This document shows, piece by piece, positions 17,867 through 58,604 of a stretch of 64,000 nt of DNA (the first letter of the stretch is position 1; the number at the start of each line of letters is the position of its first letter). The notes below the pieces were generated by a model. The model had not been told where the DNA came from and ran no database searches. It worked only from the letters and a program-made list of their open reading frames with translations. Location of the stretch: contig CACEXK010000002.1 in NCBI GenBank assembly GCA_902563505.1, positions 70,884 to 134,883 of the forward strand. The letters are read 5' to 3'. The position numbers and the translations under genes were made by a program. Source of the stretch: an uncultured Alphaproteobacteria bacterium. GTDB lineage: Bacteria; Pseudomonadota; Alphaproteobacteria; Methylaequorales; Methylaequoraceae.

Positions 17867-17956
17867 GGAGAGGTGGCCGAGTGGCTGAAGGCGCACGCTT
17901 GGAAAGCGTGTAAACAGGTAACTGTTTCGAGGGTTCGAATCCCTCTCTCTCCGCCA
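17867..17956 (+). tRNA. tRNA-Ser (anticodon GGA), CCA encoded
   Basis: Folded by hand. Acceptor GGAGAGG/TCTCTCC, anticodon stem CACGC/GCGTG with loop TTGGAAA, long variable arm AACAG..CTGTT, T arm GAGGG-TTCGAAT-CCCTC. It starts 2 nt after the lepA stop. Confidence 0.93.
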
Positions 17957-31470: not shown

Positions 31471-32805
31471 ATGAAAAAAAATATTATAAAAATATTATTT
31501 AGTGAAAAAGAGATTAAAAAAAAAGTTAAAAATTTTTCACAAATTTCATTTCCATCAAACTTTATTTTTAAAGAAAATGAAGTTATTTATGTTTGCTTAA
31601 ATCAGATATCTGATTTGAATAAACTCCAGAAAAATTTTTTTTTATTTCAAATTGGTATAAAACTTCAAAATTTTTGCAGAAAAGGAACCTATATAATTAA
31701 ATATTTTGGTGATAAAAGCTTAAATGAAGTTAATTTCTGCCTTGGATGGGAAGTTGGTAAGTATAGTTTTGATAAATATAAAACAACAGAAAGAAATAAT
31801 AATGTTGCTACTTTAATCAGCCCATTTAAAGGCCAGATAAAAAAAGAAAAAGAAGTTTTTTTCTTTGTTAGAGACTTGATAAATACTCCTGCTAATTTTC
31901 TGGGACCCAATAAAATATATGAGATGGGAAGAGTTTTTTTAAAAAAGAGTTTTTCATCAAAAAAAATTTCTGGTTCAGAACTAAAAAAAAAATTTCCTCT
32001 AATCCATGCTGTAGGTAAAGCTGCTTCAAAAGAAAAAATGCCAATTCTTTGTGAGTTAAAGTCAAAGAATACAAAATCAAAAAAAAAAATCGTAATAATT
32101 GGTAAAGGAGTTACATTTGATACTGGTGGCTTAAATCTTAAAACTGGATCTGGTATGGCATTGATGAAAAAAGATATGGGAGGAGCTGCAAATTGTATTG
32201 GCTTGGCTAATTTAATACAAACATCAAAGATTGATGTTAATATTACTTTGTTACTTCCTTTGGTAGAAAATTCTGTATCTAGAGATTCATTTAGGCCTTC
32301 GGATATTTTCAAAAGTAGAGATGGTCGTTTTGTTGAAATAGGTGATACCGATGCTGAAGGTCGGTTAATATTGGCTGATGCGATAAGTTACGCATGTGAA
32401 TCGAAACCTGATATGATTATTGATATGGCGACATTAACTGGTGCGTCAAGAGTTGCTCTTGGAATCGAAGTGCCTAGTTTCTTTTGTAATAATGATCAAT
32501 TATCCATGGAATTAATAGAAGCTTCCCAAGAAACCGGTGACCCAATTTGGCAACTACCCCTTTGGGAAAATTATCTAGATCAATTAAACTCAAATCATGC
32601 TGATGTAAAAAACATAGGGAACAGTATATTTGGAGGAGCCATAACAGCTGCTTTATTTCTTAAAGAATTTGTAAAAAATCAAATTCCTTGGGTCCATGTT
32701 GATTTGATGGCATGGTCAAAGCCCAACAAGTTTTCATCGTACGAAGGAGGTGAAGCAATGGGTATAAGGGCACTAAAGAAATTAATTGAGAAGAAGTTCG
32801 CTTAG
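31471..32805 (+). CDS. M17 leucyl aminopeptidase family protein
   Basis: GKGVTFDTGGLNLK, MKKDMGGAA, GDTDAEGRLILAD and DMATLTGA metal and catalytic motifs. The N-terminal domain is divergent. Confidence 0.85.
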   Translation: MKKNIIKILFSEKEIKKKVKNFSQISFPSNFIFKENEVIYVCLNQISDLNKLQKNFFLFQIGIKLQNFCRKGTYIIKYFGDKSLNEVNFCLGWEVGKYSFDKYKTTERNNNVATLISPFKGQIKKEKEVFFFVRDLINTPANFLGPNKIYEMGRVFLKKSFSSKKISGSELKKKFPLIHAVGKAASKEKMPILCELKSKNTKSKKKIVIIGKGVTFDTGGLNLKTGSGMALMKKDMGGAANCIGLANLIQTSKIDVNITLLLPLVENSVSRDSFRPSDIFKSRDGRFVEIGDTDAEGRLILADAISYACESKPDMIIDMATLTGASRVALGIEVPSFFCNNDQLSMELIEASQETGDPIWQLPLWENYLDQLNSNHADVKNIGNSIFGGAITAALFLKEFVKNQIPWVHVDLMAWSKPNKFSSYEGGEAMGIRALKKLIEKKFA

Positions 32806-34385
32806 AAAAAAGCGGATTTTAATAAATTTTTTGTGTAAGAGTTTTTTGGATTTTTAAATAAATTTTTTTTAGTGTTAAATTCTACAACCGCACCGTCTTT
32901 CATTACCATTATTTTATCTGATATGGCTTTAATAATCTTTAAGTCGTGGCTTATAAATATATAGGTTAAGTCATGTTTTTCTTGCAACCCCAAAAGTAAA
33001 TCCACAATTTGTGCTTGAACAGTCATATCTAGAGCACTAGTTGGTTCGTCAAGAATGATTAATTCTGGATTAAGTATTAATGCTCGAGCAATTGCAATTC
33101 TTTGTCTTTGTCCCCCAGAAAATTCATGTGGGTATCTTGTGAGCATAGTTTTGTCTAAACCTACATCAATAATTATTTTCTCGGTAAGAATATTGATTTC
33201 TTTTAATGAAAGACTTTTCTGGTGGATGAACAACCCTTCACTTATTATATCCTGCACAGTCAACCTGGGACTTAGGGAAGCAAAAGGATCTTGAAAGATT
33301 ATTTGTATATTTTTTCTAAATGGCCTAAACATATTTTGATTTAGATGGGAGATTTTTTTATTTTTGAAAAAGACATTTCCTCTTGATTGAATTAATTTTA
33401 GTAAAGCCTGAGCCAAAGAACTTTTGCCTGAACCACTTTCTCCAACAATCCCCAAAGTTTCACCTTTTTTTAATTCGAAATTTACATTTTTTACAGCATG
33501 AAAATCATTTTTCTTTCCTTTGAAAAAGAAACTATTTGAACCTTGATAAAATACATCTAATTTCTCCACAGAGAGTATTTTTTCTGTAATACTCGTCAGA
33601 TTTTGTTTTTCTTTTGGTTTAGATTTAATTAATTTTTTTGTGTATGGATGTTGTGGTTTTGAAAAAATATTTTTCGTCGAATTTTTTTCAACAATTTCAC
33701 CCTTTTCCATAACGCAAACCCTGTCAGAAATTTCTTTAACTATTCCTAGGTCGTGGGTTATGAGTAGCAATGACATTTGGAATTTTTTTCTTAGTTGATC
33801 GAGCAAATTCAGTATTTGTTTCTGAATCGTTACATCGAGAGCGGTAGTTGGTTCGTCTGCAATAAGAAGATCAGGGTTATTTGCAATTGCCATGGCAATC
33901 ATGATTCTTTGCCTTTGTCCTCCAGAAAGTTGATGGGGATATTGTTTTAATTTTTGTTGTGGTTGATCGATCCCCACTTCTTTTAATAAATCGATACATT
34001 TTTTATCTTTTGATTCATAATTTTCCGTGAGACATTCTTTAATTTGCTTTTCTATTGTGTGAAGTGGATTTAACGAGGTCATTGGTTCTTGAAATATCAT
34101 AGAGATTTTTTTTCCTCTTATACTTCTAAGAAAACTCTCATCTTGATTTAACAAATTTTTTTGCTCATATGTGATTTGTCCATTTATTGATAATTGTGCA
34201 TTAGATTTTATAAGTTGCATTATTGAAAGGGCTGTGACAGATTTTCCTGAGCCACTTTCTCCAACAATTGCAAGACACTCAGATTCAAAAATATCAAAAT
34301 TACTATCTTTTACTGCCTCAACCTTCTGGTTATTGAATTCAAATTTAATACTTAAATTTTCAATTTTTAGTATCGTCTTTCTCAT
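32802..34385 (-). CDS. yejF: ABC transporter ATP-binding protein, duplicated ATPase (YejF-like)
   Basis: Two Walker A sites (GESGSGKS twice), two LSGGQRQR signatures, 527 aa. Confidence 0.85.
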   Translation of the reverse strand: MRKTILKIENLSIKFEFNNQKVEAVKDSNFDIFESECLAIVGESGSGKSVTALSIMQLIKSNAQLSINGQITYEQKNLLNQDESFLRSIRGKKISMIFQEPMTSLNPLHTIEKQIKECLTENYESKDKKCIDLLKEVGIDQPQQKLKQYPHQLSGGQRQRIMIAMAIANNPDLLIADEPTTALDVTIQKQILNLLDQLRKKFQMSLLLITHDLGIVKEISDRVCVMEKGEIVEKNSTKNIFSKPQHPYTKKLIKSKPKEKQNLTSITEKILSVEKLDVFYQGSNSFFFKGKKNDFHAVKNVNFELKKGETLGIVGESGSGKSSLAQALLKLIQSRGNVFFKNKKISHLNQNMFRPFRKNIQIIFQDPFASLSPRLTVQDIISEGLFIHQKSLSLKEINILTEKIIIDVGLDKTMLTRYPHEFSGGQRQRIAIARALILNPELIILDEPTSALDMTVQAQIVDLLLGLQEKHDLTYIFISHDLKIIKAISDKIMVMKDGAVVEFNTKKNLFKNPKNSYTKNLLKSAFF

Positions 34386-34387
34386 TA

Positions 34388-36517
34388 TTAAATTACCTTC
34401 CTTGGATCAAAAGCGTCTCTGACTGCTTCTCCTATAAATACGAGTAGGCTTAATTGCAGTGATAAAGTAATAAATGCTGATAGTCCAAGCCATGGTGCTT
34501 GGAGGTTAGATTTTCCCTGAGCTACCATTTCTCCAAGCGAAGGCGAGCCAGGAGGCAACCCAAAGCCAAGAAAGTCTAGTGAAGTTAAGGTGGCGATTGA
34601 ACCTGACAAAATGAATGGCATCAATGTTAATGTAGCAACCATGGCATTGGGTAAAACATGTCTTAACATTATTCGTGGATTGCTTAATCCTAAAGCTTTG
34701 GCTGCTTTTACATATTCAAAGTTTCTTGCCCTCAGAAATTCTGCTCTCACAACGCCCTCAAGAGACATCCAACTAAATAACAACATTATGAAAAGCAATA
34801 TCCAGAAGCTTGGCTCAACAAAACTTGAAATTATAATTAATAAATACAAGACAGGTAAACCAGACCAAATTTCAATAAATCTTTGACCAAACAAATCAAT
34901 CTTTCCACCATAATATCCCTGTATTCCTCCTGCCACAATTCCAATGACGCTTGAAAGTACCGTTAGAATTAAACCAAAAAAGACTGAAATTCTGAAACCA
35001 TATATCAGTCTGGCCAAAACATCTCTTCCTTGATCGTCAGTTCCTAATAAGTTGTCTAAAGTTGGGGGTGAGGGGGATGGAACTTTCAGATCATAGTTGA
35101 TTGTATCATAAGAATATTCTATGAAAGGCATTATATAAAAACCTTCAGTTTTTATTAAATCTTTAACAAAAGGGTCCTTATAATCAGCTTCAGTTTCAAA
35201 TTCTCCTCCAAAATATGTCTCGGGTATTTTTTCGAAAACTGGCAAGTGCAAATTTCCCTTAAAAACTAAAAATATAGGTTTGTCATTTGCCACAAATTCT
35301 GCAAAAATTGAAAGAAAAAAAAGAATACAAAATATTTGAGTTGAAATAAGTCCTCTTTTATTAGCCATAAAGTTTTTTAGTCGTCTTTGTGTTAATGGTG
35401 AAAAATTCATTGCCCCCCCCCTACTTTCAAAATCTATTCTTGGGTCGATCAAAACATAAGTTAAATCGCTAATAAGTCTGAGTAATAAACCAATTAAAGT
35501 GAAGATATAAAGACTTCCAAATACAACAGGGTAATCCCTTCCAAGAGCAGCCTCAAAACCTAAAAGACCAAGTCCGTCCAGTGAGAAAATTACCTCAATT
35601 AATAAAGAGGAAGTGAACAATATATTAATGAATGCGGCAGGAAATCCTGAAATAACAATTAACATTGCATTTCTAAAAATATGACCGTATAAAATTTTTT
35701 TTTCACTCACACCTTTTGCTCTTGCGGTAATAACATATTGCTTGTTTATCTCGTCTAGGAAAGAGTTTTTTGTTAACATTGTTAAACTGGCAAACCCGCC
35801 TATCACCATTGCAAGAACAGGCAGGGTAAGATGCCAAAAGTAATCAAGTATTTTTTCAACAAAGCTGAGTTGATCCCAATCATCAGAAACGAGTCCCCTT
35901 AGAGGAAATATATCCAGATAACTCCCGCCAGCAAAAATTACAATTAAGAAAATAGCAAATAAAAACCCTGGAATAGCATAACCAACAATAATAATAGACG
36001 AAGAATAAATATCAAATTTTGAACCATCTTGAACTGCTTTTCTGATACCTAGTGGTATTGAAATTAAATATATAAACAGAGTTGTCCATAATCCCAAGGA
36101 AATTGAAACAGGTAATTTTTCGATAATTAAATCTATTACAGTTTTATCTTTATAAAAACTTTCACCAAAATCAAAAACTAAATAGTTTTTCAACATCTCA
36201 AAAAACCTTTCGATAGGTGGCTTATCAAACCCATATTGTTTCTCAAGTTCTTTAATTAGATCAGGGTCAATCCCTTGAGACCCTCTATATTTACTTTCTG
36301 TGAAATTCAATTTAGTCTGACTTTGTGCGGATTGAGATTGCTCTCCTCCCGAGGTTGTAAACTTTTCAGTGACAGAAACTTCAGTGCCTTTAATCTGTGC
36401 AATTGCTTTTTCAACAGGGCCACCAGGTGCTGCTTGAATAATTAAAAAATTAACTGCAAGGATACCAAAAAGTGTTGGGATAATTAGAAATAAACGTTTT
36501 ACAATATAATTTAGCAT
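34388..36517 (-). CDS. yejBE: fused ABC peptide-transporter permease (YejB-like residues 1-365 + YejE-like residues 370-709)
   Basis: The N-terminal half ends ..[11 protein letters not shown], a typical YejB end. The second half starts [20 protein letters not shown], a typical YejE start. Each half carries an EAA-type loop. From memory, the E. coli proteins are separate (about 364 and about 341 aa). Confidence 0.85.
35413..35421 (-). repeat. G9 homopolymer (C9 on + strand) exactly at the yejB/yejE junction
   Basis: Read directly as gat ttt gaa agt agg ggg ggg gca ATG aat. Consistent with the track protein ..[11 protein letters not shown].. Confidence 0.9.
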
Positions 36518-36519
36518 TT

Positions 36520-38439
36520 TTAATTTTTTCTTCTAATTCTCCAGATTATTATTAGTAGACTTGTAGTCAAAAATAAAAGAATGAAATTTCCACTATCTTT
36601 TTCCTTGTGAATGGGTTCATTTTCAATTTCACCAATCAATTTAGCTTTTTCTGGGTCATACCACCAAAAATCAAACCCTAGATCATACTTTGGAGAAATT
36701 TCAGGTCTTGATAATTTATTCCAATAAGCAACCCTGTAGTGACCAATATGAAATTGAGGAATTAGGTAGTAATTAAATAATAAAATTCGATCTAGTATTC
36801 TTGTGTGTGTAATTAACTCATCTCTTGTTTTAGAACTTATAAGTTTTTCAATTATTTCGTCAATCACAGGATTTTTAACTCCAATTATATTTGGACTTCC
36901 AGGTAGATCAGCAGTTTTAGAACTCCAGTAATTTTTTTGCTCATTTCCCGGTGAAATTATTGAACCATAATTTGTAACAACCATATCAAAATCAAAATTT
37001 TCTAGACGTCTTATATACTGAGAATCATCCTGAACAGTTCTAATTGAAACATTAATTCCTAATTTTTTTAAATTTCTTTTCATTGGAAGTACTATTCTTT
37101 CAAAAAGAGGAGAACGAAGCAAAATTTCAAATTCAAGAACTTCGTTGGTTTTACTATTTGTTAGTATATCATTCTTGATTACCCAACCTTCGTTCTTTAA
37201 AATTCTTCTAGCTATCCTGAGATTTTTTCTCAATCCATTTTCTTGATTTTCTGTATTAGGAGGGGAAAACACTGTATCAAAAACTTCATCTGGAACTTTT
37301 CCTCTATAATTCTCCAATATTTTTAATTCTTTTTTATTTGGGAGACTTTGTGATGAAAGTTCAGAGTTATCAAAAAAACTTTTTGTTCTGGTGTAGGCAC
37401 CATAAAATAAGTTACGATTTGACCATTCAAAATCAAATGCATAGGAAAGTGCTTTTCTTACATTCCTATTTTTAAAAATATTTTTTCTAATATTGAAAGC
37501 AAACCCTTGCATTCCACTTGGTCTAAAATATTTAATTTCTTCAACTAATACTTGTCCTTTCTCAACAGATTTGAAATCATATGCAGTGGCCCAATTTTTT
37601 GAGGAGTTTTCTAATTTAAAATCATACGAACCTGATTTAAACGCCTCAAGAGCAACTGTTTCATCTCGATAAAAATCAGTATGAATAGTTTCAAAATTGA
37701 AGCGACCAGAGTTAACATTTAAGTCCTTACCCCAATAATTAGGGTTCTTTTTTAAAGTAATACTTCTACCAGGTTTTACATCTGAAACAAGGTAAGGACC
37801 ACTCCCAAGCGGAGGATCTAGAGTTGTTTTATCAAATTCTTTATTTTCCCAGTATTTTTTTGAAAAAATTGGTAATTGATAACCTATTATAAGTGGAAGT
37901 TCTGGGTTAGGCTCACCCTTAAAAGAAAATTTTACCTCATTCTTACTAATTTTCTCTACAGTATCAACTTGGCCATAGTAAGTTTTATAAATAGGATGAC
38001 CTTTTTCCATCAAAATATTAAAGGAAAAAACAACATCCTCAGGGGTTATAGATGAACCATCGGAAAATTTTGCTTCATTTCTTAACTTAAATGTAACCCA
38101 AGATCTATCATCAGGAATTTTGACTCCCTCAGCTATCAACCCATATTGACTAAAAGGTTCGTCAAATGATGATCTCATCAAAGTTTCAAATAAATAAGCA
38201 GCTTTCCATGTGGCAACTCCTTTGAGAATGTAGGGATTCAAATTATCAAATGTTCCAATGGATGATAATTTTATTTCGCCACCCTTGTGAGCCAACTCAT
38301 CAGCATAATCAAATTTCTCAAAGTTTTTTGGATATTTAAGATCACCATGCATGGCTACCCCATGCCTATAATAAAAATCATTAGCAAAAATTGAATTTAG
38401 TCCCAAAAAAAAGTATGTAAAAATTATAACAAAAAACAA
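36520..38439 (-). CDS. yejA: ABC transporter substrate-binding protein, family 5 (YejA-like) with C-terminal TM extension
   Basis: Signal peptide and an SBP_bac_5-type body. The extra C-terminal tail is ..[26 protein letters not shown]. Confidence 0.85.
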
Positions 38440-38457
38440 TTTTGTTGATCCTTATAT

Positions 38458-39243
38458 TTAGATGATTTCTTTTAAAAAACTTAATATTTTTTTATGGTGA
38501 TTTCTTTCATAAGATGCAACAACTTTTCCCTCAGAATGTATATTTAATTTTTTACCATTCCAATCAGTTATAGAAGTTCCTAATTCATCAAATAATGCAA
38601 CTTGTGCCATGTAATCCCACGGCTTCATATTAGCTTCAATAATTAAATCAATTTTGCCAGACAAAAGTAAGCCATATGAATAACAATCTGTTCCAAAAAT
38701 TGGAAATCTGAATTTTTTATAAATTTTCTTTATTTTACTCATATGTTTTTCATCAAACATTAAAGGAGATGTTGAAGACACTATAGATTCATTTAATTTT
38801 TGATTTTTCTTTTTATACTTGCATCTCTTATTATTCATTCTTACTCCCAATCCAATTCCACCGTGCCATCTTTGGTTTAATATTGGCATATCAATAACGC
38901 CGATTATAGGTATTTTATCTTTAGTGCAACAAATTAGAGTTCCAAATAATGGTTTGCCTGATATAAAACTATGAGTTCCATCTAATGGATCAATTATCCA
39001 AACATAATCATTCTCGATTCGATCACTTCCAAATTCCTCTCCAACAATTCCATGATCAGGAAAGACTTTCTTTAATTTTTTTCTGAATAGTAGTTCAATT
39101 TTTTTATCAATATCAGTTACCAATGAGCCATCAATCTTTTGCTCTATTTTAAAATTTTTAAAGTATTTTTTTTTTAAAATCTCTCTACTTTGATTAGCAA
39201 AAGAATTAGCAAAATTTAGTAGTTGAGATTTTTTGAGACTCAT
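38458..39243 (-). CDS. inositol monophosphatase family protein (possible histidinol-phosphatase HisN)
   Basis: WIIDPLDGTHSF and WDYMAQVALFDELG motifs, 261 aa. Confidence 0.8.
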   Translation of the reverse strand: MSLKKSQLLNFANSFANQSREILKKKYFKNFKIEQKIDGSLVTDIDKKIELLFRKKLKKVFPDHGIVGEEFGSDRIENDYVWIIDPLDGTHSFISGKPLFGTLICCTKDKIPIIGVIDMPILNQRWHGGIGLGVRMNNKRCKYKKKNQKLNESIVSSTSPLMFDEKHMSKIKKIYKKFRFPIFGTDCYSYGLLLSGKIDLIIEANMKPWDYMAQVALFDELGTSITDWNGKKLNIHSEGKVVASYERNHHKKILSFLKEII

Positions 39244-39750
39244 TTATTTTAGTGATTCGAGATAGGTAATTAAATCAACTCTATCTGATGTCTTAACAAG
39301 TCCCTTGTAGACCATTTTAGTACCTTTTATATAATCCTTCGGCTTTTCAAGAAAAAAGAACAACTCTTCTTTAGACCAATCTTTTTTAAAGTTATTTAAT
39401 GCTTCTGAGTATTTAAAGTTTTCGATATCAGCTGATTGTCTTCCCACAATTTTCCACAAGGGGGGGCCGATTTTTATTTTTTGATTGTTACTAAAATCAT
39501 GGCAAGCAACACATTGTTTAGCAATCTTTCTACCTTCCTCAAGATTTGCCTCTGAGAATAAAAGTTCTAGATTTAAATCTTTTTTTTCTTCAGAACTTTC
39601 TATTTCTTTTTTTTCTTCACTATTCCCCATATCTTTGATTATTATATAACTATTACTTGAATCATCTTTATATGTAAAAATTTCATCTGCTACCTTAAAA
39701 GATTGAAATAAAATTAGGATTGACATAAGGGATAAAAAATATTTATTCAT
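39244..39750 (-). CDS. membrane-anchored class I cytochrome c
   Basis: N-terminal hydrophobic anchor, heme motif CVACHDF, distal Met context GTKMVYKG. Confidence 0.8.
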   Translation of the reverse strand: MNKYFLSLMSILILFQSFKVADEIFTYKDDSSNSYIIIKDMGNSEEKKEIESSEEKKDLNLELLFSEANLEEGRKIAKQCVACHDFSNNQKIKIGPPLWKIVGRQSADIENFKYSEALNNFKKDWSKEELFFFLEKPKDYIKGTKMVYKGLVKTSDRVDLITYLESLK

Positions 39751-39777
39751 AATTTTATAATATAGAATACTTTCATA

Positions 39778-40524
39778 GTGATCAAAAAAAATAAAAAAAA
39801 CTGGAAGCTGATAATCATTATTCCAGCCAGACTAAAATCTGTTAGATTAAAAAAAAAGTTATTAAGAAATATCAAAAAAGTTCCGATGATTGTCAGAGTT
39901 GCAGATAATGCAACGAAATTAGATCTTGGTGAGGTTTGGGTAGCAACTGATAGCAAACAAATCCAAAATCTTTGTAAAAGTTATGGAATTAATTCATTAA
40001 TGACATCAGAAAAAAATAGAAGTGGTACTGACCGTATTTCAGAGGCATACAAGTTGATAAATAAAAAATTTGATTTAATTGTAAACCTTCAAGGTGATTT
40101 ACCTTTATTTAATAAGGAATTAATTGAAAAAACTATAGATCTTTTTTTAGATCCAGATACAGAAATTGGTTCAGCTGTGTGCAATTTAAAAGATGAAGAA
40201 TTAGATGATAAAAACATTGTTAAGGCGAAGGTATGCCTAGACCGAAATAATCAAGGGTTTGCTGAAGATTTTTTAAGAACAATCAATAGTAAGAAAAATT
40301 GGTTTCATCATATAGGTCTCTATGTTTATAGACCAAAAGTATTAGAAAAGTTTGTAAGACTTGAACAAACAAAAAATGAATTTGACCGGAAGTTAGAACA
40401 GATGCGAGCGATGGATAACTTCATGAAAATTAAACTTGTAAAAGTTGAAGATACTCCTCCAAGTGTTGATACTATGTATGATCTAAAAAAAATTAGATTG
40501 CTTTTTAATTCAAATAACACTTAA
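39778..40524 (+). CDS. kdsB: 3-deoxy-manno-octulosonate cytidylyltransferase
   Basis: IIIIPARLKSVRLKKK, SGTDRISEA and NLQGDLP motifs. Confidence 0.9.
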   Translation: MIKKNKKNWKLIIIIPARLKSVRLKKKLLRNIKKVPMIVRVADNATKLDLGEVWVATDSKQIQNLCKSYGINSLMTSEKNRSGTDRISEAYKLINKKFDLIVNLQGDLPLFNKELIEKTIDLFLDPDTEIGSAVCNLKDEELDDKNIVKAKVCLDRNNQGFAEDFLRTINSKKNWFHHIGLYVYRPKVLEKFVRLEQTKNEFDRKLEQMRAMDNFMKIKLVKVEDTPPSVDTMYDLKKIRLLFNSNNT

Positions 40525-40534
40525 CTTTAATTCA

Positions 40535-41374
40535 ATGAAAAAAAAAATTTCATTTCAGGGACTTCAAGGAGCTTTTTCAGACTTAGTGTGTAGAAAGTTT
40601 TATAAAAGTTACGAAACCCTTCCCTGCAATACATTTGAACAGACGATTGATGCTGTGCAAAAAAATCTAGCTGAAATTGCACTTATACCTGTTGAAAATA
40701 ATATAGCTGGCAGGGTGGCAGACATGCATTTTCTTTTAGAAAAGATTAGTTTAAAAATAGTTGCCGAACATTATCATAAAATTGAGCACCATTTGATGGC
40801 AAAAAAAAATTCTAGTTTGGATGATATAAAAAATGTCTATAGTCATATTCATGCGCTATCACAGTGCAGAAAAAAAATTTTGAAAAATAAATTAAATCCA
40901 GTAAATTTTATTGATACCGCTGGAGCTGCAAAATTTGTTTCAGAAAATGAAGAATCAAATCATGCTGCTATTGCATCTGATCTAGCATCACAGATTTATA
41001 AACTAAAAATTTTAATAAGAAATTTTCAAGATTCTAAAAATAATATTACGCGATTTCTTGTGTTTTCCAAAAAAAGTATGAAAATAAATAAAAAAAAAAA
41101 AGTAATAACATCAATTATATTTAATACAAAAAACTTGCCTGCTTCCCTTTACAAGGCTCTTGGTGGATTTGCTGCAAATGGAATTAACTTAACAAGATTG
41201 GAAAGTTTTTTTGTTAATAAGGACTTTAAGCAATTTTCTTTTTTAATTGATGTAGAATCTCATCCAGAATTAAGTAATTTTAAAAATGCTCTACAGGAGC
41301 TTGATAATTATTCATCTAAAATTAAAATTCTTGGTCATTATGAAGCCTCACCATTCAGAAAAGAAATCAATTGA
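40535..41374 (+). CDS. pheA: prephenate dehydratase
   Basis: ISFQGLQGAFSD N-terminus, NITRFLVF and a C-terminal ACT domain (LTRLES). Confidence 0.9.
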   Translation: MKKKISFQGLQGAFSDLVCRKFYKSYETLPCNTFEQTIDAVQKNLAEIALIPVENNIAGRVADMHFLLEKISLKIVAEHYHKIEHHLMAKKNSSLDDIKNVYSHIHALSQCRKKILKNKLNPVNFIDTAGAAKFVSENEESNHAAIASDLASQIYKLKILIRNFQDSKNNITRFLVFSKKSMKINKKKKVITSIIFNTKNLPASLYKALGGFAANGINLTRLESFFVNKDFKQFSFLIDVESHPELSNFKNALQELDNYSSKIKILGHYEASPFRKEIN

Positions 41375-41416
41375 ATATGTTATTTTAAAATATTGTTTAA
41401 AATGCTATTTTAAAAT

Positions 41417-41508
41417 GGGAGTTGGATTTAGACAGTAGTTTCGCCAAGCCGGTCAGGACTGAGAAGAAGCAGCCGTAACGATTGCTACTGGGTTAGATTT
41501 CAACTCCT
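41417..41508 (+). ncRNA. ffs: signal recognition particle RNA (small/4.5S type)
   Basis: Long hairpin GGGAGTTGGATTTAGACAGTAG...CTACTGGGTTAGATTTCAACTCC enclosing the conserved domain IV core CCGGTCAGGACTGAGAAGAAGCAGCC with a GNRA loop (GAGA). Position upstream of dnaX is typical. Ends are +/- a few nt. Confidence 0.8.
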
Positions 41509-41522
41509 TTCAAGGGAATTAA

Positions 41523-43247
41523 ATGGTAGATAAAGAAGAAAACTATATCGTTCTAGCAAGAAAATACAGGCCAAAAAAACTTTCAGACATACTTGGGCAA
41601 GATGAAGCCTGCTCGGTGATTGAGGGATCTATAAAACTAAAAAGAGTTGCGCACGCATTCTTATTTTCAGGGACTAGAGGTGTTGGCAAGACAACAATTG
41701 CCAGAATTCTTGCCAAAATGTTAAATTGCAACGAACCCATTAAGGAGACCCAAGATCCCTGTGAAAATTGCGTAAATTGTAATTCAATTAATAATGAAAG
41801 TAATATAGATGTTGTTGAAATTGATGCTGCCAGTAGAACTGGTGTATCTGACATAAGAGAGATAATTGAAAATATTAATTACAAGCCTGTTAGCGCAAGA
41901 AAAAAAATATTTATTATTGATGAAGTGCATATGCTTTCAAAAGCTGCATTCAATGCTCTTTTAAAAACACTTGAGGAACCACCTGAGGATGTGGTTTTTA
42001 TTTTTGCTACCACTGAAACAGAAAAAATTCCGGTTACAATATTATCGAGATGCCAGAGATTTAATTTGAAAAGAGTTGAATTAGAAAAAATCTCTGAACA
42101 TCTTATTCAAATTTCAAATAAAGAAGGTTACAAAATTAATGATGATGCCTCAAATCTCATAGCACAATGTTCTGAGGGATCTGTAAGAGACGCACTATCA
42201 ATTTTAGATAATGTTTTAACAAAAAGTGATTCTATAAGTATTGAATGTGTAAGAGATGTTCTGGGTTTAGCAGACAATTCTCTTGGATTTAAATTATTTG
42301 AAAGTCTTTTTGAAGGTGATGTCAAATCTTCTTTGGAACAATTTAACGATTTATATAGCAAAGGTATTTCAATTGATCAGCTAGCAAAACTTTTAATGAA
42401 TTTTGCATACAACTTGGCTATGGTAAAATCTGGTGTTGATATAAAAAATTCTTTCCTAGATACAAATACTATCAATGCTTTGATGAAACTATCAGAAAAT
42501 TCTGAAATGGATTTTATTACAAGATTCTGGGAGTTATTACAAAAGTATATTAATGAATTATCCTCAATCTTTGATGAAAAGCAATGTTTTGATATGACAA
42601 TCATGAGATTATGTTTTGCCTCAATTATTCCAACACCTTTTGATCTTATAAAAAAAAAATCTGAAAATAATAATAACATTGAATTATCCACCTATAATCA
42701 AAATCATTCAGACTCAAAAAATTCAGATATAAAAGATATAAGCGAAAACTACCCGCAAGATAATTTAGCTAGAAAAAGAAAAATGATTGATTCAGAAAAT
42801 GTTTCCCAAAAAGAGAAATTACAAGCCAATGATTTTGAAAAATTTTACCGTTTAGTTGACAAGATTGAAAATGAATCTGAAATGGTAATTGCCTTTCATC
42901 TTAAAAATTCTTTTAGGTTGATAAGTTGTCAAGACTCTGAATTTGATGGGGGTGCTGGAACTATTGAGTTTGAATGTATTAATAATAATATTGAATCTAA
43001 AAGGATTTTATGGAAAGCAACAAAAATTATAGAAAAAATAACAAAAAAAAGATGGATTTTGTCCATCTCAAATAAAAAAGGGATGAAATCAATAGCTGAA
43101 TATCAAAACGAAAAGAATCAAGAGATCATAGAAAATGTAAGAAAAGATAAAATATTAAAAAAAATTCTTGAAATCATTCCATCATCTGAAGTAACTTCAA
43201 TAGAAGTAGTTCAGCTTGATGAACACCAAGAAAAAAAGGATAGGTAA
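41523..43247 (+). CDS. dnaX: DNA polymerase III subunit gamma/tau
   Basis: YRPKKLSDILGQDE, GTRGVGKTT, zinc module CENCVNCNS, IIDEVHML and SRCQRF motifs, 574 aa. Confidence 0.95.
   Translation: MVDKEENYIVLARKYRPKKLSDILGQDEACSVIEGSIKLKRVAHAFLFSGTRGVGKTTIARILAKMLNCNEPIKETQDPCENCVNCNSINNESNIDVVEIDAASRTGVSDIREIIENINYKPVSARKKIFIIDEVHMLSKAAFNALLKTLEEPPEDVVFIFATTETEKIPVTILSRCQRFNLKRVELEKISEHLIQISNKEGYKINDDASNLIAQCSEGSVRDALSILDNVLTKSDSISIECVRDVLGLADNSLGFKLFESLFEGDVKSSLEQFNDLYSKGISIDQLAKLLMNFAYNLAMVKSGVDIKNSFLDTNTINALMKLSENSEMDFITRFWELLQKYINELSSIFDEKQCFDMTIMRLCFASIIPTPFDLIKKKSENNNNIELSTYNQNHSDSKNSDIKDISENYPQDNLARKRKMIDSENVSQKEKLQANDFEKFYRLVDKIENESEMVIAFHLKNSFRLISCQDSEFDGGAGTIEFECINNNIESKRILWKATKIIEKITKKRWILSISNKKGMKSIAEYQNEKNQEIIENVRKDKILKKILEIIPSSEVTSIEVVQLDEHQEKKDR
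42648..42664 (+). other. candidate slippery run in dnaX (A10 followed by -1 frame UGA)
   Basis: The zero frame reads ata aaa aaa aaa tct gaa. The -1 frame after the A run reads AUC UGA. The site is at residues 376-380, just after the last domain III helix. Confidence 0.3.
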
Positions 43248-43571
43248 ATGACAAATATTTCACAAATAATGAAACAAGCAAAAGTAATGCAAGAGAAAAT
43301 GGCTGAAGTTCAAAAAAAAATTGAAGAAGCTGAGGTTGAAGGATCTTCAGGAGGAGGGGCTGTAAAAGTTATAGTGAATGGAAAGCATAATGTTAAGAAA
43401 ATTTCAATAGACCCATCCCTTGTAGATAAAAATGAAATAGAGGTTTTAGAAGATCTTTTGGTTGCTGCCTTGAATGATGCCACTAATAAAATTTCGGAAA
43501 ACATGAGTTCACAACTTAGTACTATCTCAGGCGGCATGGACTTGCCACCGGGAATGAAACTTCCTTTTTAA
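43248..43571 (+). CDS. ybaB: nucleoid-associated protein YbaB/EbfC
   Basis: 107 aa with MKQAKVMQEKMAEVQKKIEE...GGGAVKV..NGK pattern. ATG directly abuts the dnaX stop. Confidence 0.9.
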   Translation: MTNISQIMKQAKVMQEKMAEVQKKIEEAEVEGSSGGGAVKVIVNGKHNVKKISIDPSLVDKNEIEVLEDLLVAALNDATNKISENMSSQLSTISGGMDLPPGMKLPF

Positions 43572-43577
43572 TTTGGT

Positions 43578-44174
43578 ATGTCCTCTTCTTTGGGTGAATT
43601 AATTGACTTGTTTTCAAAACTACCAAGTTTAGGCCCCAGATCAGCAAGAAGAATAGTTTTACACCTTTTAAAGAACAAAGAAAAATTAATACCTAACATT
43701 TTAAATTCTCTTGAAAATTTAAAATCTAGTCTGATATTTTGTGCTATTTGTGGAAATATTGACTCCACTTCACCATGTAATATTTGCAATTCAAAAAATA
43801 GAAAAAAAGAAAAAGTTTGTATCGTTGAGGAGATTGGTGACTTATGGGCAATTGAAAAAAGTAAAGCTTATGACGGACAATATCATATATTAGGAGGGAC
43901 ATTGTCAGCAATTGACGGGATTGGTCCAGAAGAATTAAATATTTCTTCCCTTCACAAAAGAATAAAAGATTATCAAGTAACAGAAATTATTCTAGCAACT
44001 AATGCTACGGTTGAAGGACAAATTACTGCACAGTACATAGCTGACACATTTAATAAAGATAATATTTTGATTACCAGGCTTGCTCAAGGAATGCCAATAG
44101 GAGGCGAACTAGATACAATTGATTATAATACACTCTCTATGGCTTTTAATTCTCGATCTGAAATGAAAAACTAA
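43578..44174 (+). CDS. recR: recombination protein RecR
   Basis: LPSLGPRSARR helix-hairpin-helix, C4 zinc finger CAICGNIDSTSPCNIC, Toprim VCIVEE. Confidence 0.95.
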   Translation: MSSSLGELIDLFSKLPSLGPRSARRIVLHLLKNKEKLIPNILNSLENLKSSLIFCAICGNIDSTSPCNICNSKNRKKEKVCIVEEIGDLWAIEKSKAYDGQYHILGGTLSAIDGIGPEELNISSLHKRIKDYQVTEIILATNATVEGQITAQYIADTFNKDNILITRLAQGMPIGGELDTIDYNTLSMAFNSRSEMKN

Positions 44175-45157
44175 CCTTCGAGATCAAGCTTTAGTAACTT
44201 ATTTTTTTTGTTAGAAATTTTGTTTGTAGTAATAAGAATGTCGTTTAAATCATTTTGAGCATTATTAAAATGTGAGTCCATTTTTTTAACCCTAACCTCA
44301 AGTCTAGAAATTTCATTGGTAAGATCTTTTAATTGCTGAAAGATAATATTTGAATTGTCATTGATTCTTTGGTCCCTAATTACTGTTTCAATATAATTTA
44401 AAACGATCCACAAAGTGGTTGGAGATATGAGGAAAACTTTTGATTCATAGAATTTTTCACTTATTTCAGGAATCAAATGGAATATTTCTAAATATATTTG
44501 TTCACTCGGAATGAAAATTAGTGCAATCTCAGAGGTCTCTCCAGGTATTATATATTTATCTCTGACATCTTGAATATGATTTGTAATATCAGATTTAAAG
44601 AGCTTTCCATTTTTAATTTTTTCGTCTTTTGTTTTAGATTGAAAAATTTTGTCAAAGCTCTCTCTTGGAAATTTTGAATCAATACACAAGTTGTTAAGGG
44701 ACCCTGATGATTTTATAATACAATCAACTCTGAATGAATTAGATAATGTTTTCTGAAATTCGTAATTTTCTTTTGGCAGATAATCTTTTATCAAACTTTC
44801 TAGGATAATTTCTCCCAATCTTCCTCTTTTAGAGGTATTAGATAAAATATTTTTTAAATCTACTACATTTTCAGTGAGTCCGGTGATATTTTGTTGTGCT
44901 CTATCAATTAATGCAATTCGTTCACGTATTTGATGAAGGTTACTTGTATTTTCACTCGAAGATTTATCAAATTTAAGATCTATTTTATCGAAATTTTTTT
45001 CAATTATTTCTGATATTGATCTCTCTAAACTCTCTTGCTTTTCAACTAATACTTTCAATCTTTCTTTATTATTATTATTTGAAAAAAAAAATTGAAAAAA
45101 TACTATAATTAAGAGTAAGCTAGATAAAAAAAGAATTATGATAAACTCTAAACTCAT
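44171..45157 (-). CDS. rmuC: DNA recombination protein RmuC
   Basis: N-terminal TM helix, coiled coil and a C-terminal RmuC nuclease-like domain (FRVDCIIK, DSKFP, LIFIPSEQIY). Confidence 0.85.
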   Translation of the reverse strand: MSLEFIIILFLSSLLLIIVFFQFFFSNNNNKERLKVLVEKQESLERSISEIIEKNFDKIDLKFDKSSSENTSNLHQIRERIALIDRAQQNITGLTENVVDLKNILSNTSKRGRLGEIILESLIKDYLPKENYEFQKTLSNSFRVDCIIKSSGSLNNLCIDSKFPRESFDKIFQSKTKDEKIKNGKLFKSDITNHIQDVRDKYIIPGETSEIALIFIPSEQIYLEIFHLIPEISEKFYESKVFLISPTTLWIVLNYIETVIRDQRINDNSNIIFQQLKDLTNEISRLEVRVKKMDSHFNNAQNDLNDILITTNKISNKKNKLLKLDLEG

Positions 45158-58527: not shown

Positions 58528-58604
58528 GTGCCCGTAGCTTAATTGGATAGAGCATCTGACTACGAATCAGAAGGTTGGGAGTTCGACTCTCTCCGGGCAC
58601 GCCA
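58528..58604 (+). tRNA. tRNA-Arg (anticodon ACG), CCA encoded
   Basis: Folded by hand. Acceptor GTGCCCG/CGGGCAC, anticodon stem TCTGA/TCAGA with loop CTACGAA, T arm GGGAG-TTCGACT-CTCTC. Confidence 0.93.

Follow-up and report, generated by a model that had tools for sequence, protein, structure and literature searches.

A one-base difference in a G-rich tract joins yejB and yejE in a single assembly of an uncultured marine alphaproteobacterium

Introduction

The closest described system to the locus considered here is YejABEF, a microcin C/peptide ABC importer of Escherichia coli and other Proteobacteria, in which the ATPase YejF carries two nucleotide-binding domains in one chain, as established for the yejABEF architecture of E. 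coli (PMC10924461). In the literature searched for a fused yejB/yejE, only the normal four-protein system is described. The solved structures of the homologous DppB/C and OppB/C also show separate chains. In other ABC families, single-chain importer permeases with two domains do occur, and naturally fused examples include E. coli ThiP, permeases of the FbpB/HitB type and FhuB, where one chain replaces the heterodimer. Orthologues share these fused forms, which possess evolved linkers. Another class of systems relevant to the present case is that of the poly-G/C simple-sequence contingency loci, which are involved in phase variation in Haemophilus, Neisseria and Campylobacter.

Here we describe a yej operon in which the two permease genes are read as one, and compare its junction with those of the same species, of the nearest species and of Proteobacteria in general. 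The whole stretch of DNA that was analysed, 64,000 nt (64 kb) in length, is referred to below as the window.

The yej operon and the fused reading frame

An ordinary operon for a peptide ABC importer, in the order yejA-yejB-yejE-yejF, is found at this locus of an uncultured marine alphaproteobacterium with AT-rich DNA. Its parts are the following:

36520-38439, minus strand: yejA-like gene of a family-5 solute-binding protein (SBP_bac_5), upstream in the operon
35414-36517, minus strand: yejB part, 368 codons, ending in ..DFESRGG, full length against NF011712
34388-35410, minus strand: yejE part, with an ATG of its own (35408-35410), 340 codons and a stop
34386-34387, minus strand: yejE-yejF spacer, TAA-TA-ATG in the window and TAA-A-ATG in conspecifics
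32802-34385, minus strand: yejF, ATPase with two nucleotide-binding domains in one chain (two ABC_tran stretches), downstream

A single open reading frame of 709 aa (34388-36517, minus strand) spans the yejB-yejE junction, and the permease is thus not encoded as two polypeptides in the window. Residues 1-366 match the NCBIfam profile of YejB (NF011712) over its whole length (1-364 of 364) with 577.5 bits, above the cut-off of 445, and residues 371-708 match the YejE-type profile (NF011596, positions 3-340 of 341) with 481.4 bits, above the cut-off of 439. The product consists of two complete family members, YejB and YejE, joined exactly end to end via one alanine. The genes on either side are those expected for such an operon, a family-5 solute-binding protein and an ATPase with a double nucleotide-binding domain, the YejF-like protein scoring 653 bits, under the equivalog cut-off of 834 bits.

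The 3' end of yejF (32802-34385, minus strand) overlaps by 4 nt (32802-32805) that of a convergent leucyl-aminopeptidase-like gene (31471-32805, plus strand). Elsewhere in the window, genes of a small SRP RNA (41417-41511), tRNA-Ser(gga) (17867-17956) and tRNA-Arg(acg) (58528-58604) were located, all on the plus strand. Intergenic spacers are very short and the usage of Shine-Dalgarno sequences is low, so that the window looks like part of a streamlined genome.

The junction and its G9 tract

On the minus strand the junction reads gat ttt gaa agt agg ggg ggg gca atg aat, or AGTA-GGGGGGGGG-CAATG, and comprises three overlapping or adjoining features:

35413-35421, minus strand: run of nine G's (C9 when read on the plus strand); the six conspecific contigs all have G8 here
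35412, minus strand: base immediately downstream (3') of the tract, C in the window and T in conspecifics, where it begins the yejB stop codon TAA; the transition is private to the window
35411-35413, minus strand: GCA codon; its alanine is the only residue that links the YejB and YejE parts

The initial annotation had proposed that a G9 run within 35408-35425 fuses yejB and yejE into a 709-aa reading frame, and the sequence, the run (35413-35421) and the reading frame were all recovered. It had also taken this run for the longest of G or C in the window, correctly, the next being one G7 (39460-39466) and two C6 runs; a scan of the window alone found no further G/C run of at least 8 nt in the 64 kb. 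The G7, counted on the plus strand, lies inside a cytochrome c reading frame (39244-39750, minus strand) and has equal length in the conspecific contig L007. The GC content of the window is 30.5%, not about 29% as first given. In dinucleotide-preserving shuffles of the window, the pattern GGGGGGGG was matched 0.19 times on average, and the two overlapping matches that a G9 gives were reached in 3 of 100. By this measure the run is unusual without being extreme, and its description as very unexpected has to be softened.

Frame arithmetic shows that nine G's fuse the genes with either C or T after them (G9-T leads to ..RGGV-M..), while G7 or G10 alone append a tail of 16-17 aa to YejB. G8 and G9 alike leave the YejB and YejE sequences complete. 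The split form that had been suggested for the window after the loss of one G, G8-CAATGA with a 4-nt overlap of stop and start, is arithmetically valid (..RGGQ followed by TGA), but this sequence was found nowhere, and the split state of the species is G8-TAATG.

The junction in the same species

The YejE part (340 aa, counted from the internal ATG) occurs, called as a protein of its own, with 100% amino-acid identity on six contigs (L001-L006) from Tara Oceans and other marine metagenomes, 99.3-99.5% identical to the window at the DNA level. These contigs carry one common haplotype and partly share a sampling campaign, so that they are not six independent strains. AGTA-GGGGGGGG-TAATG, with eight G's and the codons agg ggg ggg taa, is present in all six, and the window thus differs by one extra G and by the T to C change at 35412. 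Within the species the tract length is therefore G8 in six of six contigs and G9 in the window. The TAA stop of yejB in the conspecifics shares its last A with the ATG of yejE (1-nt overlap), and yejB is a separate gene call of 368 aa on each of the three contigs that cover it in full. The yejB part of the window and this stand-alone YejB differ in a single amino acid, I263 in the former and V263 in the latter.

Exact look-ups of ten hypothetical junction products were carried out in a collection of about 15 billion proteins. The products represented G7, G8-C, G8-T, G9-T, G9-C and G10, with only part of these lengths in both the I263 and V263 backgrounds, and the known V263 G8-T YejB was the sole match; the G8-C (..RGGQ), G7, G10, G9-T and G9-C products were absent in the backgrounds tested. 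Exact look-ups of the window's fused protein, YejF, binding protein, inositol monophosphatase and cytochrome c also had no match, and no contig from a strain nearer to the window was found by the look-ups of exact products. A degenerate junction pattern with a variable gap, searched in metagenome contigs, returned only a contig that was already known (L007, the record of L001).

The junction in wider relatives

Closest among the species of the genome collection are those of the single-cell genomes AG-892-F10, AG-892-K07, AG-899-D02 and AG-915-O07 of uncultured Alphaproteobacteria, with about 31% GC and 71-73% DNA identity to the window. Their junctions are all split, and a homopolymer is found in none of them: they read ..agt aga gga aac TAATG.. 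(..RGN), ..agg aga agt gag TAATG.. (..RSE) or, in L062, ..aga ggg aat TAA aa ATG.. (..RGN, with TAA and a 2-nt spacer). The 90%-identity cluster of YejB has 195 members, and among the 15 listed, 13 have 368 aa, the other two being a copy of 367 aa and a fragment of 289 aa; nearly all of these 15 end in ..ESRGN. The comparison of tract length with relatives, which the initial annotation had proposed, thus gave G8 in the six conspecific contigs and split junctions without a homopolymer in the sister species. With both family profiles matched over their full or nearly full length and the relatives split, the earlier view stands of an end-to-end fusion that depends on a single base in the length of the tract. 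The split G8-TAATG junction is firmly the norm of the species, the split state is the norm of the genus, and the fusion is confined to this assembly.

YejB and YejE are separate in all 70 proteobacterial yejB-yejE loci that were compared. The stop codon is followed by 3 nt and ATG in 27 loci and abuts the ATG in 16, a 1-nt overlap occurs in five, and the 4-nt ATGA overlap, which had been regarded as the usual arrangement, in only two. In the junctions L008-L087 the two genes lie mostly in one reading frame with a stop codon and 0 or 3 nt between them, a configuration in which substitution of the stop or readthrough would fuse them.

The 3' end of yejB is G-rich almost everywhere (..agc cgG GAG Gtc TGA..), with Arg-Gly/Glu codons and a GGGAGG-like stretch that resembles a Shine-Dalgarno sequence for yejE, and an independent G8 is present at the equivalent site in Candidatus Contendobacter (L059). 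This suggests that the G8 of the species is a local variant of a conserved element, for example through AGGGAGGGG to AGGGGGGGG, rather than a dedicated repeat. Whether the tract may act as a Shine-Dalgarno sequence in this organism is uncertain: the family-wide GGGAGG-like motif speaks for it, but a Shine-Dalgarno-like 4-mer within about 20 nt upstream was found for only 8 of 47 window genes (reading frames starting with ATG).

Other fused YejBE entries

A search with the full-length protein returned about twenty proteins of 620-850 aa with at most 60% identity, nearly all of them single sequences on single contigs. Many of the fused YejBE entries in the database are Bradyrhizobium-like and are annotated as single permeases. 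In the alignment of these entries (P0002-P0026), most have a frameshifted YejB tail (..DRSADRFRGAGGLM..), the onset of which differs from sequence to sequence. Frameshifts at differing positions indicate that indels arose independently close to the end of the gene, as is typical of sporadic mutations or of errors in draft assemblies, and there is no conserved fused clade. With the 94-aa junction peptide as query, the search matched only two fused-looking fragments, both from other organisms and located in visibly broken gene calls, and none from the species or genus of the window. The word prefilter of the full-length search was apparently not exhaustive, so that absence from its matches is weak evidence. 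The genus-level YejB cluster representative P0122 is missing from these matches despite its seeming closeness to the YejB of the window.

Quality of the assembly around the junction

The 11.7-kb conspecific contig L007 was aligned to positions 33006-44746 of the window. The alignment contains 82 substitutions (51 of them transitions), of which 46 are synonymous, 34 non-synonymous and 2 non-coding; all six substitutions between the yejE of the window and that of the conspecifics are silent. Examples of SNPs specific to the window are A at 35731 and C at 35075 (minus strand). Only two indels are present in these 11.7 kb, one in the G tract and one of a single base in the yejE-yejF spacer (TAAAATG to TAATAATG), both at gene boundaries of the operon. 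Because the spacer indel is no change of a homopolymer, natural variation seems to be its source. All other homopolymers of at least 6 nt, 91 in number (21 of them of at least 8 nt, the longest A12, plus a G7), are equally long in the window and in L007. No coding frameshifts were seen elsewhere in this comparison, and intact reading frames are densely packed across the whole window.

The concordance of the 91 homopolymers together with the presence of only two indels makes general homopolymer noise unlikely in the window assembly, and the G8 called in all six other assemblies, which are of the short-read type, indicates that the tract is not intrinsically miscalled. To judge from the pattern of substitutions, the window represents a strain of its own, with variation that has been filtered by selection, rather than a noisy copy. 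The main text of the WGA-X paper gives no homopolymer error figures, and hence no numerical error prior was applied. The end of L001/L007 diverges sharply from the window (33006-33040; residues 454-476 of YejF differ), and bases 1-146 of L005 do not align to it; each could be a contig-end chimera or a result of recombination.

Possible function of the fused product

In a hydropathy scan, the yejB half has six transmembrane segments and the yejE half has five hydrophobic blocks, of which one (547-577) is broad enough for two segments. The region of the linker is positively charged, consistent with cytoplasmic termini in both halves, which the solved DppBC and OppBC homologues also have, so that the in-frame join would be topologically permissible. 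The fused YejBE product is plausibly functional, as far as its predicted topology goes.

Explanations of the junction

The best explanation of the G9 junction, held here with about even confidence, is a real and young variant at the level of the strain or the cell. The yejB of the species ends in AGG GGG GGG (Arg-Gly-Gly), a G8 run followed by TAATG. Replication slippage on this run might have added one G, and the neighbouring T to C transition would have arisen independently; the extra G would put the yejB stop out of frame and join YejB to YejE through a single alanine. The fusion may be tolerated as nearly neutral, since both joined ends would be cytoplasmic and the halves act as a 1:1 pair anyway, and with the yejE ATG and the preceding G-rich stretch intact, some separate YejE could still be made. 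The one-base expansion of a G8 run belongs to a fast class of mutations, both indels fall at gene boundaries, where natural indels are tolerated, and the clean state of the other homopolymers together with the consistent G8 of the other assemblies tilts slightly toward a real variant. Yet a G9 is a priori the most error-prone site of the window, the six contigs with G8 are not independent strains, and the uniqueness of the fused state, with no second case from the genus in the searches and with similar database fusions being singletons, tilts toward an artefact. In that alternative, which is somewhat less probable but still to be taken seriously, assembly, amplification or base-calling introduced the extra G, and the true genome has G8 with separate yejB and yejE, most likely as G8-CAATGA with the T to C change as a real SNP. 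Such an error would fall on the longest G/C homopolymer in 64 kb, in the only assembly with the fused state, and would resemble the fusions in the database, with their mostly frameshifted tails and broken gene calls. Against it speak the 91 concordant homopolymers and the lack of any other coding frameshift in 11.7 kb, as well as the G8 of six other assemblies. The adjacent T to C change is not a typical homopolymer error either, although two adjacent private changes could mean one local error. The chance of a SNP at a given flanking site is about 0.7% (82 SNPs in 11.7 kb), and because an artefact most plausibly needs the same real transition, the position of the extra G next to it is as great a coincidence under the one explanation as under the other.

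Two further explanations are not supported. A phase-variable (contingency) tract, switching frequently between a split and a fused permease or to impaired G7 and G10 forms in a regulated or bet-hedging manner, is improbable. A G8 or G9 in a coding sequence is long enough to slip, and if the window is correct two length states exist; but G8 and G9 both keep the two domains intact, so that switching would have no ON/OFF outcome, no second G/C run of this size accompanies the tract in the window, and the tract itself derives from the G-rich Arg-Gly/Glu and GGGAGG-like stretch found family-wide. The toggling of fused and split states by slippage, as had been suggested earlier, also disagrees with the G8 of six out of six conspecific contigs and with the absence of G7, G9 or G10 products from the records, or of the G9-T and G8-C products in the two backgrounds tested. 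Only a slim chance is likewise given to a slippery G8/G9 element at which slippage in replication or transcription would yield both the split and the single-chain permease, the window having caught the fused genotype. Least probable of all is an established adaptive fusion, that is, a lineage with a fixed single-chain YejBE permease. The join is in frame and precise and leaves the downstream domain intact, and the T to C change would be neutral only once the genes are fused (GTA to GCA in the linker), whereas in the split state this T starts the stop codon that sets the 368-aa YejB, a length kept in 13 of the 15 listed cluster members. No second genome or contig with the fusion was found, though; conspecifics at 99.3-99.5% identity, the sister species and the 70 proteobacterial loci are all split, and the linker is one residue long and still part of a slippery homopolymer.

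Thus, the junction reflects either a sequencing error or a one-base variant private to this assembly and not a new kind of protein; the operon is of the ordinary yejABEF type, differing by one base in the length of a G-rich gene boundary. If the preferred reading of a real variant is right, the window would provide a snapshot of adjacent genes of partner subunits in the course of fusing, in which one slippage event at a gene boundary probably gives a functional single-chain permease. The main value of the case is practical and concerns annotation: the 709-aa YejBE call from this genome should carry a warning of a possible frameshift and should not be passed on as a new protein architecture, and the comparison shows that other database fusions of yejB and yejE are singletons and mostly products of frameshifts.

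Comparison with known systems

As in the YejABEF importer of E. coli and other Proteobacteria, the genes in the window follow the order of solute-binding protein, yejB, yejE and yejF, and both halves of the permease score above their family cut-offs. Unlike in the described system, where YejB and YejE are separate, they are joined here by one alanine, and the YejF score below the equivalog cut-off means that the substrate is not implied by the likeness.

With the naturally fused ThiP, FbpB/HitB and FhuB the window shares two transmembrane domains in a single chain. In contrast to these permeases, its fusion is private to one assembly and was made by a change in homopolymer length. The tract resembles the contingency loci of Haemophilus, Neisseria and Campylobacter in being a G run of at least 8 nt within a coding sequence, where a one-base change alters the downstream frame. 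It differs from them in having no ON/OFF effect, in a length polymorphism that would exist only through this assembly, in being the one tract in 64 kb and in the free-living, marine host.

Finally, the locus is similar to the frameshift chimeras of draft genomes and MAGs, such as the YejBE entries of 650-760 aa, which are singletons, most of them with indels near the end of yejB. Unlike in those chimeras, YejB in the window keeps its native C-terminus to the final residue, and the assembly around it is clean in other respects.
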